In this document: positions 3,482-64,000 of the stretch, piece after piece
How the letters are laid out: each line of letters opens with the position of its first letter
Numbering within the stretch: the stretch's first letter is position 1
Notes under the pieces: model-generated
What the model saw: only the letters and a program-made list of their open reading frames with translations
Databases searched by the model: none
Told to the model about the DNA's origin: nothing
Position numbers and translations under genes: made by a program
From: a virus
Taxonomy: Duplodnaviria > Caudoviricetes
Strand: one strand, 5' to 3'
DNA length: 64,000 nucleotides
Virus record (IMG/VR): IMGVR_UViG_3300028591_000109
Span: 77,568 to 141,567 of that record

Positions 3482-4045
3482 TTACTCGGCTTGCTGGTTA
3501 TCGTTCTGACTCTGCGACGGGAACAGGGCCTCGTAGGGAGCCCAGTCGATGGCATCCTTCTCCCGCCAGCCTGCGGCCAGCGTCTGGTTGATGTGGGCGA
3601 CGGCCTTCACGTAGAAGTCCTGAGCGCCGGCCATCGTCTCGAAGGTGTGGTAGACGGGCGTGCCGTCCTCCCGCTCGCCCAGCTTGAAGGTGACTGGCAG
3701 CGTCGCGCCCCCGGTCTGCACGGCGAGGTCGTAGGCCGCCTTGAAGTTGAACTGGTTCTCGCTGGAGAGCCACACAGAGACGGACTCCTCTGCGCCTTCG
3801 GGAGTCCATACGAAACCGGAGAGGATCTTCTCGTCGGTGCGGGCGTTGATGTCGGCAAGGATGGCGGCCTTCACGTCGGCAAACGAGATGGTGGCGTGCT
3901 GACGCTTGTAGAGGTAGACCTCATACCAGGAGGCAAGGCCGCCTGCCTGTTCAGGCTGCTGCAGTCCATAACATACGGTGACGCGCGAACCCTCGTCGCG
4001 CAGTGGAGCGTAGTCGCTCACGGGTCCTGTGGTCTTGTTCTTCAT
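3482..4045 (-). CDS. DUF4376-like phage tail-associated protein
   Basis: WLSSENQFNFKAAYDLAVQTGGATLPVTFKLG motif, typical of Bacteroidales phage proteins found after tail-fibre genes. Confidence 0.65.
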   Translation of the reverse strand: MKNKTTGPVSDYAPLRDEGSRVTVCYGLQQPEQAGGLASWYEVYLYKRQHATISFADVKAAILADINARTDEKILSGFVWTPEGAEESVSVWLSSENQFNFKAAYDLAVQTGGATLPVTFKLGEREDGTPVYHTFETMAGAQDFYVKAVAHINQTLAAGWREKDAIDWAPYEALFPSQSQNDNQQAE

Positions 4046-4132
4046 TGTGATAATTATTTAAATGGGTGAATAATGGTTTTATCGGGATGGCTGCGATGGT
4101 ATCGCAGCATACTGGACGGAGGGAGATTTCCG

Positions 4133-4771
4133 CTATGCGGCTCGCTGCATACGGGTCATGTCGGCGTCGAAGTAGCCGATGCGCAGGTACTCGGGACGGA
4201 AAAACAGCTCGCGGCGCAGGCGGTAGCTGGCCGTCTGGCGCAGGATGCCGAGGTAGGAGTTGACCGTGCGCACCACCTTGTCGGGACGGTTGAAGTCCAT
4301 CTCGCGCAGGTGGCGGCGTATGCGCTGCAGCGAGGTCAGGTTGCCGTGATCGTCGGGCATCTGGATGGGCACGTCAATGCGCCCGTCCTCCACGTCGCGC
4401 CAGTCGAGCACCAGTTCCTTGGGCAGGTACTTGTCGAACGACTTCTCCTGGAATCCCACGAAGATGTACTCGCCACCAATGTTCTTGGCGAATTTCTTCA
4501 CTGCCGTGGGCGGAACAATCTCCATGTCGGGGTGCAGGCGCTTCATCTGCGAGGTGATGACCACGGCCACCAGCCACGCGCTCCACTCGTTGGCGTGCCA
4601 GTAGTTTCCGTCGCGCAGCAGGTGAACCACGTTCCACTTCTCAGGTTCCTTCCTGTCGGCCTCGATGGTTTGGATTTCCTGGTTGGTGAATCCCTTCCGC
4701 TCGCCCTGCTGCTTGGGCAGCTGGACTTTGGCAGACGGTTGGTTCTGTTGTTGTGTCTGTGTTGTTGACAT
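4133..4771 (-). pseudogene. Chimeric DGR remnant: accessory (MutS-I-like/MSL-type) N-terminus fused in frame to the C-terminal ~65 aa of a DGR reverse transcriptase
   Basis: N-part VVHLLRDGNYWHANEWSAWL resembles Bacteroidales DGR accessory proteins; C-part VNSYLGILRQTASYRLRRELF resembles the DGR-RT thumb; no YxDD motif; junction near 4333-4345. Confidence 0.7.
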
Positions 4772-4798
4772 ATCTCTATTTGTCTATTATTTTTTCTG

Positions 4799-4892
4799 TT
4801 GGTTTCCTTCGTCCGCCCCACTGCTGCTGTGCCGCGCTGGGGCGCGGCGGTGCAGCAGTGAAGCGCACGAAGGAATGGTTCGGGCGGAAGTA
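4799..4892 (-). promoter_or_regulatory. GC-rich hairpin/cruciform downstream of variable repeat, copy B (DGR target-recognition element)
   Basis: Nested inverted repeats TTCCTTCGT/ACGAAGGAA, CACTGCTGC/GCAGCAGTG and CCGCGC/GCGCGG; identical copy at 6337-6430. Confidence 0.75.
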
Positions 4893-5075
4893 TTACTGGA
4901 CCGGCCGAACCGGGAAACCGCAGTACCGATCGTACGCGCCCTGCGGGCGGACACCATTGGGATAGAAGTACAGGCCCCGGGCGTGGCGAGCCGAATCGAA
5001 CGTCGACGACCAGAAGTAGCCACTGCCCGTGCGATTGACCCACGAACGGCCATAGCCGAGACCGGACGCCGGAAA
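4893..5075 (-). repeat. DGR variable repeat B
   Basis: Differs from 6431-6613 only at codon positions 1 and 2 of NNC/NNT codons. Confidence 0.85.
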
Positions 5076-5786
5076 GAAAAGAAGATTACCGTTGATCTTC
5101 GAGCGCAGATAGAGACCGTTGATGCCGTTCACCGTCACGCGCTTGTCGGCAGCCTTCTTGGCGATGCTGGTCTCTGCCGTCACCACGTTGCCGTCGGCGT
5201 CGATGTAGTCGATATTGGCGAACAGCTCCGCGAAGTCTTCATTGCTTGGCATGCGCCAGGGGGCACCGAGGCAGGCGCGGGCGGCGTCCATCGAGGGAGG
5301 TATATTTCCCGTGAGCGTATTACCCGGCGTGTCGCCGTACACCTGTCCGTCGTACCACGGCTCTGCGGAGTTCACGCTGCCCCAGTTGTAGTCAAAGGCT
5401 GATGTGCTGCTGGGATTGTGTCCGTCGGTGTTGCCCCACGAGAAGAATGAGCACTCGTACTTGAAGGGCGATACTGCGCCGTCCACCTCCTGGAATTTCG
5501 ACGCCGTGGCGAGGTCGATGGAGGCCTTGGCCCAGAGCACGCCGGAGGGCAGGCCCATGTCTACGAAGAGGTCGGTATCGACGTAGGGCTTCTGGTATTC
5601 CAGGATGTCGCTGAGTTTCTTGCCCGTCTTCAGGTCAATAACGGCATCCGTCGAGAGGGGCGTCTTGTTGGCGGGCGTACCGTCGTCGTTGAAGAGCATC
5701 ACCTGTTGAGTTTTGCCGGCGGTGGTGGCTGCCGTGAGGCCGCTCTGCACGGCCTTCAGGGCGTTAAGTTTGGTAATTGTTTCCAT
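4893..5786 (-). CDS. DGR target protein B with C-terminal CLec-type domain (probable receptor-binding protein)
   Basis: FVDMGLPSGVLWA, WRMPS, LFFPASG..YFWSST..GFPVRPVQ motifs; paralogue of 6431-7336. Confidence 0.85.
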   Translation of the reverse strand: METITKLNALKAVQSGLTAATTAGKTQQVMLFNDDGTPANKTPLSTDAVIDLKTGKKLSDILEYQKPYVDTDLFVDMGLPSGVLWAKASIDLATASKFQEVDGAVSPFKYECSFFSWGNTDGHNPSSTSAFDYNWGSVNSAEPWYDGQVYGDTPGNTLTGNIPPSMDAARACLGAPWRMPSNEDFAELFANIDYIDADGNVVTAETSIAKKAADKRVTVNGINGLYLRSKINGNLLFFPASGLGYGRSWVNRTGSGYFWSSTFDSARHARGLYFYPNGVRPQGAYDRYCGFPVRPVQ

Positions 5787-5866
5787 TGCTGTGTTGTATT
5801 GTTTCGTTGTTTACTGTTTCTTTTACAAAGAAGATTGCGGCGGTGCCGTCGACGGCATCCCGTCGG

Positions 5867-6316
5867 CTATGCGCTGACCACCACCGTGCGGATCATCAGT
5901 TCGGCCACGGCCTGCAGCAGCTGCTGGCGGGTGTACTGCTGCCCGTTGGCAGTGTATGTCTCGCCCTCTAATGCCGTTATCCGTGCGTTGAGTTGGCTGA
6001 CCCAGTACTCTATGCTTGCGTCGGTGAATATCTCCCACCCCTCATTGGGCGCCGGGTCGGTGACGACGAACGAGCGCTTACCGTTGACGATGTTCACCAC
6101 GAACTGGCCGTTCTGCACCGTCAGCGTGCAGGGCAGGTTCTGCGTAGCGGCGGTGGCGCGGTAGAGCACGCCGTTGATGCCTACAACGGCGTTATTCGGG
6201 AACGTCGATGCAGGCGTGAGCGTCGAGATGTCCACAGGCAGCAATGCCCCTGCCTCATAAGCCATCTGCAGCTGCCCGAGGTTGACGGCCTTTTCAAGAG
6301 TGTTATTGCTTGGCAT
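5867..6316 (-). CDS. Tail-associated protein, paralogue B (MPSNNTL...)
   Basis: N- and C-termini nearly identical to 7398-7844. Confidence 0.75.
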   Translation of the reverse strand: MPSNNTLEKAVNLGQLQMAYEAGALLPVDISTLTPASTFPNNAVVGINGVLYRATAATQNLPCTLTVQNGQFVVNIVNGKRSFVVTDPAPNEGWEIFTDASIEYWVSQLNARITALEGETYTANGQQYTRQQLLQAVAELMIRTVVVSA

Positions 6317-6336
6317 ATTCTTGTTTTATTTTTCTA

Positions 6337-6430
6337 TTGGTTTCCTTCGTCCGCCCCACTGCTGCTGTGCCGCGCTGGGGCGCGGCGGTGCAGCAGTGAA
6401 GCGCACGAAGGAATGGTTCGGGCGGAAGTA
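6337..6430 (-). promoter_or_regulatory. GC-rich hairpin/cruciform downstream of variable repeat, copy A
   Basis: Identical to 4799-4892. Confidence 0.75.
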
Positions 6431-6613
6431 TTACTGGACCGGCCGAACCGGGAAACCGTTGGACCGATTGATCGCGTACTGCGGGTTGACACCACCGGGA
6501 TAGAAGTTCAGGCTCCGGGCGAGGCGAGCCGAACTGAACGTCGACGACCAGAAGTAGCCATTGCCCGTGCGATTGGTCCACGAACGGCCATTGCCGAAAC
6601 CGGACGCCGGAAA
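6431..6613 (-). repeat. DGR variable repeat A
   Basis: Retains several AAC/AAT codons where copy B is substituted. Confidence 0.85.
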
Positions 6614-7336
6614 GAAAAGAAGATTACCGTTGATCTTCGAGCGCAGGTAGAGGCCGTTGATGCCGTTCACCGTCACGCGCTTGTCGGCAGCCGTCTTGGC
6701 GATGCTGGTCTCTGCCGTCACCACGTTGCCGTCGGCGTCGATGTAGTCGATATTGGCGAACAGCTCCGTGAAGTCCTCATTGCTCGGCATGCGCCAGGGC
6801 GCACCGAGGCAGGCGCGGGCGGCGTCCATCGAGGGCGGAATGTTGCCCGTGAGCGTATTACCCGGCGTGTCGCCGTACACCTGTCCGTCGTAGTAGGGCT
6901 CCTGCTCGTTCACGCCGCCCCAGTTGTAATCAAAAGCGGATGTACTGCTGGGATTGTGTCCGTCGGTGTTGCCCCAAGAGAAGAATGAGCACTCGTACTT
7001 GAAGGGCGATACTGCGCCGTCCACCTCCTGGAATTTCGACGTCGTGGTGAGGTCGATGGAGGCCTTGGCCCAGAGCACGCCGGAGGGCAGGCCCATGTCT
7101 ACGAAGAGGTCGCTGTCGACGTATGGCTTCTGGTATTCCAGGATGTCGCTGAGTTTCTTGCCCGTCTTCAGGTCGATGACGGCATCGGTCGAGAGGGGCG
7201 TCTTGCCGTTAGGTGCTCCGTCGGGTCCGAAGAGCATCTGTGTCTGTGTCTTCAACGCCGTGTCTTGCGCCGTGAGTCCGCTCTGCACGGTCTTCAGCGC
7301 TTGTTGAATGGTTACTGTTCCAACATTGTCTGCCAT
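6431..7336 (-). CDS. DGR target protein A with C-terminal CLec-type domain
   Basis: Same motifs as 4893-5786. Confidence 0.85.
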   Translation of the reverse strand: MADNVGTVTIQQALKTVQSGLTAQDTALKTQTQMLFGPDGAPNGKTPLSTDAVIDLKTGKKLSDILEYQKPYVDSDLFVDMGLPSGVLWAKASIDLTTTSKFQEVDGAVSPFKYECSFFSWGNTDGHNPSSTSAFDYNWGGVNEQEPYYDGQVYGDTPGNTLTGNIPPSMDAARACLGAPWRMPSNEDFTELFANIDYIDADGNVVTAETSIAKTAADKRVTVNGINGLYLRSKINGNLLFFPASGFGNGRSWTNRTGNGYFWSSTFSSARLARSLNFYPGGVNPQYAINRSNGFPVRPVQ

Positions 7337-7397: not shown

Positions 7398-7844
7398 TCA
7401 CTGCGTGACAATGGTTTTATCCATCAGCTCGGCCACGGCCTGCAGTAACTGTCGGCGCGTATATTGTTTTCCGTTGGCGGTGTAGGTCTCGGTCTCCAGT
7501 GCCGAGATTCTTTGGTCGGCCAGCGAGTAGGCGTAGGCCATGCCCGCGTCCATCCACACCTCCCAGTCGGCGTTGACGGTCATGTCCTGCACGACGAAGG
7601 CCTGCTGTCCGTTCACCTCATGGGTGACGAACTTGCCGTCGCTCACCACCATCGTCAGCGGCATCGAGGCCGTGGCCCGCTTGGCGCGGTAGAGCACGCC
7701 GCCGATGCCGATGACGGCGTTCTTCGGGAACGTCGATGCAGGCGTGAGCGTCGAGATGTCTACGGGCAGCAATGCCCCCGCCTCATAAGCCATCTGCAGC
7801 TGCCCGAGGTTGACGGCCTTTTTAAGAGTGTTATTGCTTGGCAT
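7398..7844 (-). CDS. Tail-associated protein, paralogue A (MPSNNTL...)
   Basis: Paralogue of 5867-6316. Confidence 0.75.
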   Translation of the reverse strand: MPSNNTLKKAVNLGQLQMAYEAGALLPVDISTLTPASTFPKNAVIGIGGVLYRAKRATASMPLTMVVSDGKFVTHEVNGQQAFVVQDMTVNADWEVWMDAGMAYAYSLADQRISALETETYTANGKQYTRRQLLQAVAELMDKTIVTQ

Positions 7845-30863: not shown

Positions 30864-31286
30864 TCAGAGAAGTTTTACCTTTTCGATGCGCCCATCGTTA
30901 TGCCGATGAAACCACTCTGCGTAGAGACTCGGCGCACCGAAATTGATAATCATGCCGTATGGCTGATGCGTCAGATTCATGTAGTTAAACAGTTGTCTAC
31001 GATGACAGGTTTCAACATGCGATACAGCTTTCAACTCACAGATGATGTTGCCGCCAATCATCAAGTCCATACGGTACGACTGATCTAACTGAACGTCGTC
31101 CCAGAATATTGGGAGGTACACCTGCCGCTCCACCTGTACTCCTTTCAGTTCCAGCAGGTATTTTAGAGCGGCCTCGTAGGCACTTTCCACCAGTCCTGGC
31201 TTGAACTTGCGGTGTACGCGCATGGCTTCGCCAGTGATGTCGGCAAAGAACTGATACCGCTGGTTGTATTCTTTTATCAAATCCAT
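30864..31286 (-). CDS. GxxExxY protein (PD-(D/E)xK nuclease fold) 1
   Basis: PGLVESAYE, YRMDL, ICELKAV, GMIINFG. Confidence 0.9.
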   Translation of the reverse strand: MDLIKEYNQRYQFFADITGEAMRVHRKFKPGLVESAYEAALKYLLELKGVQVERQVYLPIFWDDVQLDQSYRMDLMIGGNIICELKAVSHVETCHRRQLFNYMNLTHQPYGMIINFGAPSLYAEWFHRHNDGRIEKVKLL

Positions 31287-31423
31287 AGTTGGGTGTTTTA
31301 AACCGTCTTACGACGGGAAATTATTCAAATTATTCTCAAATTATTCAACCCTGCGGATGGAAAAGTTCTAATAATTTGAATTAAATTTGAACAATTTCCA
31401 CCCGTCAGGGTGCTCAGAAGTCA

Positions 31424-32454: not shown

Positions 32455-32877
32455 TTACAGCAGCTTCACCTGTTCTACCTCGCCGGTCGTCACATTGAGT
32501 TCGTACCATTCGCTGTAGAGACTCTTGCTGCCAAAGTTGATAATCATGCCATACCTCGTATGAGTGATGCGCATATAGCTCCAGAGTTGCTGGCGGTGTT
32601 CAACGCTCACGAATTTCACCGCCTTCAGTTCGCAGATGACGCCGCCGACCACGAGGTCCATACGGTACGACTGGTCGAGGGGCACGTCGTCCCAGAAGAT
32701 GGGCAGGTACACCTGCCGCTCCACCTTCATGCCTTTCAGTTCCAGCAGGTACTTCAGCGCCGCCTCGTAGGCGCTCTCCACCAGTCCGGGTCTGAACTTG
32801 CGGTGTACGCGCATGGCTTCGCCCGTGATGTCGGCAAAGAACTGATACCGCTGGTTGTGTTCCTTGATTGCATCCAT
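32455..32877 (-). CDS. GxxExxY protein 2
   Basis: Close paralogue of 30864-31286. Confidence 0.9.
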   Translation of the reverse strand: MDAIKEHNQRYQFFADITGEAMRVHRKFRPGLVESAYEAALKYLLELKGMKVERQVYLPIFWDDVPLDQSYRMDLVVGGVICELKAVKFVSVEHRQQLWSYMRITHTRYGMIINFGSKSLYSEWYELNVTTGEVEQVKLL

Positions 32878-33073
32878 AGTTTTGCTTGGGTTTTAAGTTA
32901 ATAATTGGGTTGTTTTGTTAGCGCCCTTGCGGGCGGAAATTGTAAGAAAATTGGGTAAGAAAATGCGCTTCGCTTGAAAAGAATTTTTATAATCACTGCA
33001 AGAATTTTTATAATTTTCTTACAAGCGGAGCGCATTCTTTTAGAATTTCCCGCCGACAGGCGGCTAAGAATAG

Positions 33074-61485: not shown

Positions 61486-62429
61486 AGCCATATAGGTTGC
61501 ACCCAGATAGGGCGCAAAATGGTTCTGATATTCACGCAATATCGGCGGTGTATTGCTTCAGTACGGTTCAATACACTTACCCGTCTCGTCGTTATATATT
61601 CTCCTTATAGCCTCTCGCCATAAGTCCCTACCGTGCCCGTCTCACGTTGTGGCTACGTCCCCAGTATCCGTGCGTATAGCGGTGTGCGTATAGCGCATGG
61701 ACTTAGGGATGATCTCGGCCCGTTTCAAGTGAGCATTTCACCCTTCGATTAGTAACCGACAAATATCCTTTGCCGTTGTTCAGTAATGTAGTGGCGGCAT
61801 CTCACAAAGCATTTCGCAAATGTGACAGCCTGTGAGGAAGATACCCATTTCGGGCATCGGAATTTTTGCCGATAGTTCTTCAGAATGGATCTTCAAATTT
61901 CGTCCACGTCTGCTTCGCGTTTAGCAAAATTCCACTTCCTGCGTTTGCGTACCTGCACAGCTCAGGCGTACACGCTGCGCCTTGTGGCGTTCGCGTGCGC
62001 CGTGCTGCGTTCCTGTGGCCTGTGCTGCGTTCCTTTGCCTGTGGCATCGGTGGCGGCGGTGGCCTGTGGAAAACAGGCACAAAAGGAAAACGGCGGCGAA
62101 AACGTTTGCGGCGTTTCGCTGCGGCCTGTGGCCTGTGGCGGCGTTCTTTGCGTTTCGCCTGTGGCCTGTGGCATCGGCATCGGCGGCGGCCTGTGGTGGC
62201 CTGTGCCTTTGCGTTCCGTTTGTTATGTGGTGGCGGCCTGTGTGCTTCGGCGTTTCGCTTCGGCGGTGGCCTGTGGCCTGTGCTGCGTTCCGTTTCGGAA
62301 CGGCGGCGGCCTGTTTTGGTGGCGTTTCGCTACCTTTGCGCCCTGTGCCGTTTTCGCTACGGCCAAAGTTACATTATTACAGGGCAAAGAACGGAACGCC
62401 GTACGGCGGCGGCGTTCCTGTGGTGGCCT

Positions 62430-63968
62430 TTATGCGGCGGCGGCATCGGCGGCCTTTACTACGGCGGTGGCCTGTGCCTGTGCGGCCTTTGCGGTGGCGG
62501 CGGCGGCATTTTCGGCGGCGGCCTGTGCGGCGGCGGCCTGTGTTCTGTTTGCAGAACGGCGGCGGCGTTCCTGTTTTGCGGTGGCGGCGGTGGCCTTTGC
62601 CTTTGCATCGGCGGCAATAATTTCGGCATCGGTGGCGGTGGCATCGGTGGCCTTTGCCTGTAAATCGGCGGCGGCGGCCTTTGCTTCGGCCTGTGCGGCA
62701 TCTACGGCGGCGGCGGCCTGTAATGCGGTGGCGGCGGCCAAAATCAAATCATATTGTTTTGCTTCGGCGGCCTGTGCGGCGGCATCGGCGGCGCAAATGC
62801 GGCGCAAAATATTATTGCAAATAATCATCATAACGGCCTTTTCGGCGTTCCACGCCGTTACGGCGTTTATGTGACGGCGGCCAAATGTGCCGATTTTAAT
62901 GCCTGTGGCGGTGGCGGCCAAAAGGAACGGCGAAACATTTTCGGCGGCGAAAATCTTCGGCGTTACATCTTCGGCCTTTATTGATACGGCGGCGGCATCA
63001 AAAACAGGAGCATAAACTTTCCACATCTTTACCACATCTTTACAGGCACGGGAAAGTGAAAACGCTTCGGCATGTGCGGCCTTAAATGCGGCCTTAAATT
63101 TGGCATCTTTGCGCAAATTCTTTAAGGCATCGGCGGCGGCGGCCAAAACGGCGGCGGCGTTTGTTTCGGCGGCATCTACGGCCAAAACGGCAATATCTTC
63201 GGCGGTGGCCTGTGCCTTTTCGGAACGTGCAAAGGCCAAATCAATACGGCGGCGGCGTGCCAAATCGGCGGCGGCCTGTGCTGCGGCCTTTGCTTCGGCG
63301 GCATCGGTGGCCTTTGCTTCGGCATCGGTGGCGGCGGCATCGGCGGCGGCCTTTGCCTTTTCCACATCGGCACGCAGCACGGCGGCGGCCTTTTCCTGTG
63401 CGGCCTTTTCCTTTGCCTGTGCGGCGGCATCGGCGGCGGCCTTTGCATCGGCGGCACGCCGTATCATTTTCGCCACCTTTGCGGCGGTGGCGGCGGCGGC
63501 CTTTGCGGCCTTTACATCGGCGGCGGCGGCGGCCTTTGCCGTGCGTGCCTTTTCCTTTGCCTTTATTGCCTTTTCGGCGGCCTGTTTGGTGGTGGCCGAA
63601 ACACGTGCGGCATCGGCGGCCGAATAATCGGCCTTTGCCTTATTTAAACGTTCTACGGCCTTTGCGGCCTTTTCATCGGCACGGCCTTTTGCCTTTTCGG
63701 CCGAAACGGCGGCGGCCTGTGCCTTTGCCGTACTTATTTGGCCGTTACGTATCTTTGCAACCAAATCGGCGGCCTTTTCTACGGCGGCGGCATCGGCGGC
63801 CTTTGCCTTTGCATCGGCATCGGCGGCGGCCTGTGCGGCGGTGGCGGCGGTGGCCTGTGTGGCGGCATCGGCGGCGGTGGCGGTGGCCTGTGCTGCGTTC
63901 TTTACTTTGTTTTCCTGTGCGGCGGCGGCGTTCTGTGCGGCGGCGGCGTTTGTTTCGTTCTTTTTCAT
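62430..63968 (-). CDS. Ala/Lys-rich low-complexity protein with a small non-repetitive core
   Basis: 512 aa ORF with AT-rich leader; atypical codon usage. Confidence 0.6.
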   Translation of the reverse strand: MKKNETNAAAAQNAAAAQENKVKNAAQATATAADAATQATAATAAQAAADADAKAKAADAAAVEKAADLVAKIRNGQISTAKAQAAAVSAEKAKGRADEKAAKAVERLNKAKADYSAADAARVSATTKQAAEKAIKAKEKARTAKAAAAADVKAAKAAAATAAKVAKMIRRAADAKAAADAAAQAKEKAAQEKAAAVLRADVEKAKAAADAAATDAEAKATDAAEAKAAAQAAADLARRRRIDLAFARSEKAQATAEDIAVLAVDAAETNAAAVLAAAADALKNLRKDAKFKAAFKAAHAEAFSLSRACKDVVKMWKVYAPVFDAAAVSIKAEDVTPKIFAAENVSPFLLAATATGIKIGTFGRRHINAVTAWNAEKAVMMIICNNILRRICAADAAAQAAEAKQYDLILAAATALQAAAAVDAAQAEAKAAAADLQAKATDATATDAEIIAADAKAKATAATAKQERRRRSANRTQAAAAQAAAENAAAATAKAAQAQATAVVKAADAAAA

Positions 63969-64000
63969 AACTTTAATTTTTTAGATGTTTGAATATTGAT

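Follow-up and report, generated by a model that had tools for sequence, protein, structure and literature searches.

How does a phage come to carry two variable repeats (VRs) with the adenine signature of a diversity-generating retroelement (DGR), and to hold neither the template repeat (TR) nor the reverse transcriptase (RT) of such an element? The question is raised by a 64-kb stretch of phage DNA (the window, to whose positions all coordinates refer unless another contig is named), which is the final part of the 141,567-bp IMG/VR record IMGVR_UViG_3300028591_000109, rated 100% complete by CheckV. The metagenome runs that hold the window come from sheep and bovine gut, and the run that holds it best is from sheep gut. 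Two target genes lie here on the minus strand: target A (297 aa; 4893..5786), with a 'METIT'-type N-terminal allele, and target B (301 aa; 6431..7336), with a 'MADN'-type N-terminal allele and a C-terminal domain resembling C-type lectins and FISUMP proteins. The locus is a genuine DGR footprint, that of a known system with its engine deleted, and we consider it quite probable that the two genes are duplicated DGR targets whose engine was lost by deletion and whose VRs are frozen relics.

Adenine-limited variation in two target genes

Targets A and B are paralogues, 87% identical as proteins. A first reading of the region from its sequence alone (the sequence-only reading) had counted 22 substitutions in 15 codons between the ends of the two genes, confined to codon positions 1 and 2 and never synonymous, and a codon-aligned recount of the last 58 codons bore this out: 12 substitutions fall at position 1, 10 at position 2 and none at position 3, and all 15 differing codons are non-synonymous, with no synonymous difference among them. 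The variable codons extend over 4920-5060 in copy A and 6458-6598 in copy B, within minus-strand repeats delimited by alignment to the TR of related phages (VR-A, 4896..5082; VR-B, 6434..6620, with 187 nt homologous to that TR). Upstream, in the core of the genes (codons 46-240), the pattern is another one, with 29 codons differing, 20 of them synonymously and 9 non-synonymously, mostly through changes at position 3. The same reading had described the differences immediately upstream of the repeats as synonymous; this holds for the two that lie closest to the VR but not farther up, where the nine non-synonymous changes of the core are found.

The same target is encoded, at 82-92% identity, by two IMG/VR contigs and some 12 metagenome contigs (contig labels used in the analysis are L001, L002/L017, L011, L012, L014, L015, L016, L018, L019, L023, L026, L032, L033 and L035). 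An intact cassette is present in L001, L002/L017, L011, L015, L018, L019 and L023, in the order two 148-aa genes, target, hairpin, a 226-aa accessory gene, a 191-nt repeat, a 398-aa RT and a DUF4376 gene. The RT of these relatives matches RVT_1 at 47.7 bits (cut-off 29.6) and PHROG 1423 (phrog_1423) at E = 2e-73, and has the IGxxxSQ and YVDD motifs that are typical of DGR RTs; the repeat upstream of it is the TR. That the window's repeats derive from a lost AAY-rich TR, as had been proposed, is supported by relatives that carry just such a TR beside a DGR-type RT. Each variable codon faces AAC or AAT in their TR, in agreement with the proposal that every variable codon could derive from one of these two, and the translated TR agrees with all three asparagine-rich stretches of the template peptide that had been reconstructed from the two repeats.

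Set against the relatives' TR, the differences between A and B occupy 22 of 40 adenine sites and 0 of 147 other sites (Fisher p = 4.8e-18). VR-A departs from the L001 TR by 22 changes at adenine sites and VR-B by 15, and each has three further changes at non-adenine sites, the same three in both. One of the two copies retains A at 19 of the 22 differing sites, and when four VRs are compared 32 of the 40 TR adenines vary, all 32 at codon positions 1 or 2. Both VRs lie at the 3' end of an open reading frame (ORF), and the variation is limited to TR-adenine positions, namely positions 1 and 2 of AAY codons, as is expected of a DGR variable repeat; among the homologues too, the variation is found at TR adenines only rather than being spread over all codon positions. 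As a positive control, the RT-bearing contigs L002 and L018 differ at 16 of 191 VR positions versus 58 of ~12,700 positions elsewhere (p = 9e-15). Because both window VRs depart from the relatives' TRs at the same three non-adenine positions, a mid-VR one among them, a single template belonging to the phage's own lineage, now missing, would have written both, and the simplest reading is that it did so after the target had been duplicated.

A three-tier 30-bp hairpin follows each VR on its 3' side (4804..4875 for VR-A and 6342..6413 for VR-B, minus strand). The sequence-only reading had placed the same hairpin behind both repeats, and the downstream stretches are indeed identical between the copies. 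Folded as DNA, the hairpin reaches -37.6 kcal/mol (z = -8.2), a value equalled by 0 of 200 shuffles; it is GC-rich, and it was not called as a terminator, there being no T tail on either strand. A divergent sublineage (L012 and L016) has a hairpin of another sequence that folds into the same three tiers (-39 kcal/mol, z = -8.0). Retrohoming in phage BPP-1 needs a hairpin or cruciform at a comparable place, with stems of 7-10 bp (Guo et al. 2011, PMC3240598). In its GC content and its position shortly 3' of the VR, the hairpin of the window agrees with what is expected of a DGR target site, although its 30 bp in three tiers and its CCCA loop are unlike the 8-bp stem and GRNA loop of BPP-1; by analogy, it is presumably the DGR target signal.

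Loss of the template and the reverse transcriptase

The absence of a TR, noted at first for the window, extends to the whole phage genome: blastn with the VR regions found no third copy of the repeat in the window or elsewhere in the 141,567 bp, and a six-frame search of the same genome with RVT_1 returned no match. With the L001 RT as query, tblastn gave a sole match, a 67-residue C-terminal remnant (residues 332-398, 89.6% identity) at 4136-4336. Of the two parts that mark a complete DGR, an RT of the DGR clade and a TR that differs from the VR at adenines, the genome has neither.

Synteny by blastn and an alignment of the junction show that 1621 bp, corresponding to L001 11467-13087, are missing from the window, and that the flanks join across a 3-bp microhomology (CCT on the coding strand, which is the minus strand) at 4333..4335. 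The segment takes in 80 codons at the 3' end of the 226-aa accessory gene (its 3' third), the whole TR and RT codons 1-331, and this alignment with L001 shows the cause of the TR and RT loss to be a 1621-bp deletion between microhomologies. The accessory and RT genes do not share a frame, and 1621 leaves a remainder of 1 when divided by 3, so that the join yields an open, in-frame fusion ORF of 212 aa (4133..4771, minus strand) in which the accessory N-terminus (codons 1-146) runs on into the final 66 RT codons; the RT remnant, delimited by tblastn and alignment, occupies 4133..4332 on the same strand with its stop codon included. An ENA assembly encodes exactly the same 212-aa protein, as does a Logan contig from a further run. 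A protein search found no accessory-RT fusion beyond this phage, and the exact deletion junction, sought in IMG/VR with degenerate positions allowed, had no match there. The downstream flank of the cassette is a DUF4376 gene (3482..4045, minus strand; PF14301, E = 2e-9), which by synteny is the gene that follows the RT in intact relatives.

The second rearrangement is a tandem duplication. The duplicated unit, composed of a 148-aa gene, the target and the hairpin (L001 9496-11008), occurs twice in tandem in the window. The partner gene of target B (148 aa; 7398..7844, minus strand) lies within this unit and is 94% identical to p148b of L001; a family search with it gave no match. The partner gene of target A (149 aa; 5867..6316, minus strand) is its paralogue (repeat families D8 and D12) and is nearer to the allele of the L002 type. 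Within the clade the 5' end of the target (first 150 nt, ~45 codons) exists as two alleles that are ~65% identical, represented in the window at 5651-5786 (A) and 7201-7336 (B), and each of them goes with a corresponding allele of the 148-aa gene upstream. In relatives the N-terminal alleles occur singly, and the window phage has both pairs. The pairing of alleles suggests that the target N-terminus and the 148-aa partner protein interact. The cores of copies A and B are each other's closest relatives, at 94% identity.

A history that accommodates these results, with the relatives as its model, would begin with an ancestor whose DGR had the order target, hairpin, accessory gene, TR and RT. This element would have copied its TR, rich in asparagine codons, into both VRs by adenine-error-prone reverse transcription; the 1621-bp deletion, as the alignment with L001 shows, then took away the TR and most of the RT; and both VRs would now be fixed, so that the phage would display two static binding specificities instead of one variable specificity.

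Probably frozen repeats and the alternatives

Since the phage genome contains neither an RT nor a TR, its two VRs would be fixed sequences. VR-A and VR-B are letter-identical in all datasets that hold this backbone, and in L035 VR-B is unchanged, the single-nucleotide polymorphisms (SNPs) of that contig lying outside the VR. Several points weigh against the proposed account. The L035 comparison is a weak one, its background divergence amounting to 2 SNPs in 2.3 kb; the comparison rests on contigs and not on raw reads, and low-frequency VR variants are beyond its reach; and the datasets that repeat the architecture may share one study or animal and are perhaps not independent samples. In the best-holding run the VR unitigs have depths of 52 and 48 against 68-72 for the unique flanks, a shortfall that may be due either to an edge effect or to minority variants. 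Both copies keep the same undamaged VR 3' end and hairpin, so that they remain formally competent targets, and relatives occur at low depth in the best-holding run. Lastly, the structural matches to the target domain, described below, all have Z below 8.

Some of these points belong equally to the alternative that fares best, namely continued writing of the VRs in trans. Mutagenised cDNA would then come from an intact accessory gene, TR and RT carried by a co-infecting relative or by a resident prophage, and would home by way of the conserved 3' end and the hairpin. Over their last 24 nt both VRs match the TRs of L001, L002 and L018 letter for letter, and the hairpin is 100% identical between copies though the genes differ by 6-8% elsewhere. 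Relatives are present at 2-8x against ~70x for the window phage in the best-holding run, and one of their contigs, lying across VR-B, has a TR-like A at 6556 and 6576. DGR components have been found to function in trans in experiments (Wu et al. 2018, PMC5758913, on non-adjacent target genes; Guo et al. 2011, PMC3240598). However, the three non-adenine markers of the window VRs, the mid-VR one among them, are absent from every recovered TR, so that no known relative's TR wrote these VRs; the letter-identity of VR-A and VR-B wherever the backbone has been sampled also speaks against continued writing; and the 24-nt VR/TR 3' end had no match among 185,579 species-representative bacterial genomes (GTDB). 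A scan of IMG/VR for the same 24 nt matched only two relatives that were already known. We therefore regard diversification in trans as unlikely, and frozen VRs as the better account.

A second alternative attributes the architecture to assembly: two strains with one target allele each would have been stitched in tandem, and the deletion would be a chimeric join. The region is repetitive, Logan unitigs break at its repeats, and none of them covers the whole stretch in the best-holding run; 4270-4791 has no cover in that run, which by itself proves nothing; and the two copies bear the two N-terminal alleles that relatives hold singly. Against this, a 135-kb ENA contig has the identical gene order (190-148-301-149-297-212-187 aa), and JGI contig L035, which belongs to another IMG dataset, connects hairpin B with the 149-aa gene and the beginning of target A, with 2 mismatches in 2320 nt (99.9% identity) to the window across the duplication junction. 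The exact fusion protein recurs on the Logan contig from a different run. Depth in the best-holding run is 68-69 for copy-specific unitigs, 72 for the flank and 91-126 for the parts common to both copies, which fits one genome with two copies; a stitched pair of strains is contradicted by the shared flank, whose depth of 72 equals the copy-specific depth of 68 instead of being double. Taken together, the ENA assembly, L035, the Logan contig and the depths indicate that both rearrangements are real, and an assembly artefact appears very improbable. Logan contig L026 was considered as a case of variation and rejected: its 7 sites unlike the window match the other copy, and it is read as a unitig switching between copies.

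The remaining alternative, positive selection or gene conversion acting on the ligand-binding residues of paralogues without any DGR, can appeal to the fast evolution of receptor-binding tips and to differences between the paralogues elsewhere, notably in the N-terminal 45 codons, but it hardly deserves credence and is effectively refuted by the coincidence with TR adenines, since all 22 differences fall on them and none on the 147 other sites or at third codon positions, A is kept in one copy at 19 of the 22 sites, and variation among the relatives' VRs falls on the same 32 of the 40 adenines.

The target proteins and the cassette across the clade

The clade contains a further loss of the DGR core. 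Contig L012, whose accessory protein is only ~25% identical to that of the window sublineage, is without L032 positions 3983-5912, a segment with the accessory gene's 3' part, the TR and the RT up to codon 367, and there is again a 3-bp overlap at the join (L012:1152-1733 against L032:3626-6085). This is a second, independent deletion in a divergent sublineage. Its endpoints lie ~8 codons (~25 nt) and ~21 codons (~63 nt) from those of the window deletion, and such near-shared endpoints could reflect either selection that keeps the accessory N-domain and the RT 3' end or a hot spot. Other contigs show other irregularities. In L014 (4736-4966) the target 3' repeat passes directly into post-TR sequence and then the RT, which looks like a recombination between VR and TR that deleted the hairpin and the accessory gene. 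L033 (1476-4005) has three repeats, not two, an extra VR 3' part with a hairpin and a 193-aa accessory gene standing before the TR and RT. The repeat at the TR position upstream of the RT in L019 (2664-2854) has many adenines replaced and resembles a VR, which suggests a corrupted template.

The window deletion, the L012 loss, the VR/TR recombinant, the duplicated repeat and the adenine-stripped TR together show DGR cassettes to be evolutionarily unstable within one phage clade. One could go further and see the DGR core in this rumen phage clade as a module that the phages can do without and have lost time and again at favoured breakpoints, the orphan VRs being re-diversified by the DGRs of co-infecting relatives and the engine being a shared good; we offer this as a long shot. 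The locus provides a natural test bed for whether orphan VRs can be served in trans and for whether two fixed specificities can take the place of ongoing hypermutation.

The sequence-only reading had assigned the targets to the C-type-lectin (CLec) fold. A first AlphaFold2 (AF2) model made with a shallow 34-sequence alignment was unusable, with a mean predicted local distance difference test score (pLDDT) of 44.6, and a model of target B based on a 70-sequence alignment reached a pLDDT of 87.7 overall and >96 over residues 78-301. Compared by VIA-align, residues 73-301 gave Z values of 6.6 for Mtd (130 residues aligned), 6.5 for Lcl-C, 6.0 for TvpA and 5.7 for TaqVP, and nearly all of the top list consists of C-type-lectin/FGE-fold proteins, including many animal C-type lectin-like domains (CTLDs). 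No match at E <= 0.001 was returned by Foldseek against the PDB, and a profile search of PDB sequences gave no meaningful match. The modelled C-terminal domain thus likely has the C-type-lectin fold, as proposed, at Z values of only 5.7-6.6 for its best CLec matches (Mtd, TvpA and TaqVP among them). Matches to PF09603 (Fib_succ_major; 19.2 and 23.0 bits, cut-off 33.9) and TIGR02145 (FISUMP; 18-19 bits, cut-off 41.65) stay below their cut-offs; some homologues of the family are recorded with PF09603, and PF07603 matches occur in homologues. With 26,296 representatives at E <= 0.001, the family to which the domain belongs is very large. Each target gene likely encodes a phage receptor-binding protein, with its variable residues in the last 58 codons of the lectin-like domain. 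The genes nearby include the DUF4376 gene and one with a weak tail-fibre PHROG match, neighbours that such a receptor-binding role would fit.

The closest parallel among known systems is BPP-1 (mtd, avd, TR, brt), with which the intact relatives share the order target, accessory gene, TR, RT, the accessory gene sitting at the place of avd. In BPP-1 too, the VR occupies the last codons of a receptor-binding protein of C-type-lectin fold, Mtd, the top structural match here, and the TR has AAC and AAT codons, the changes are adenine-specific and a GC-rich hairpin stands just past the VR (PMC3240598). The window phage is unlike BPP-1 in having no TR and no RT, an accessory gene that is truncated and fused, and two tandem targets. 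A further difference lies in the accessory protein of the relatives, which has 226 aa and no Avd match, nor any match in Pfam or PHROG. One feature-based cluster of look-alikes of this protein has MutS_I in 17% of its members, and we take a placement in the MSL class (PMC5758913) as a lead only.

About 13% of DGR cassettes have two targets, as in dual-target gut phages of the tentaclin type (PMC10743442). Like those multi-target systems, the window has two paralogous targets with a VR each, and such paralogues are thought to be born by duplication (PMC10743442); unlike them, it has lost the DGR core, and its two targets differ in their N-terminal (attachment) alleles, each of which is matched by the partner gene upstream of it. 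The lectin-fold subtype and the gut or rumen habitat recall the FISUMP, Fib_succ_major and DUF1566 (Lcl_C) targets of Bacteroidota gut phages, for example hankyphage (PMC6199706), from which the window differs in its scores below the Pfam cut-offs, its 141-kb phage backbone and its lost engine. We found no direct precedent for an 'orphan', 'remnant' or 'lost' DGR in the literature searched, which does not show that none exists. DGR surveys begin from the RT, so that targets without an engine escape notice. The locus represents no new system but the decayed copy of a well-known one, and leaves the understanding of how DGRs work unchanged; it offers a cleanly mapped case of a phage DGR switched off by a single microhomology deletion, in which two duplicated and differently written receptor-binding tips remain with intact target signals.

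We note that a homologue of the accessory gene, P0306, is annotated from a 102-kb contig of a Prevotella sp. metagenome-assembled genome; together with the sheep and bovine gut runs, this hints at a rumen Prevotella as the host. Elsewhere in the window, 62100-64000 is filled with dense, imperfect, GC-rich direct repeats with units such as GGCGGC and CCTTTGC (families D1-D6 and D11), which probably encode a low-complexity repeat protein. A 247-nt direct repeat of 85% identity (family D7) is present at 31044-31290 and 32635-32881, with 1.6 kb between the two copies.

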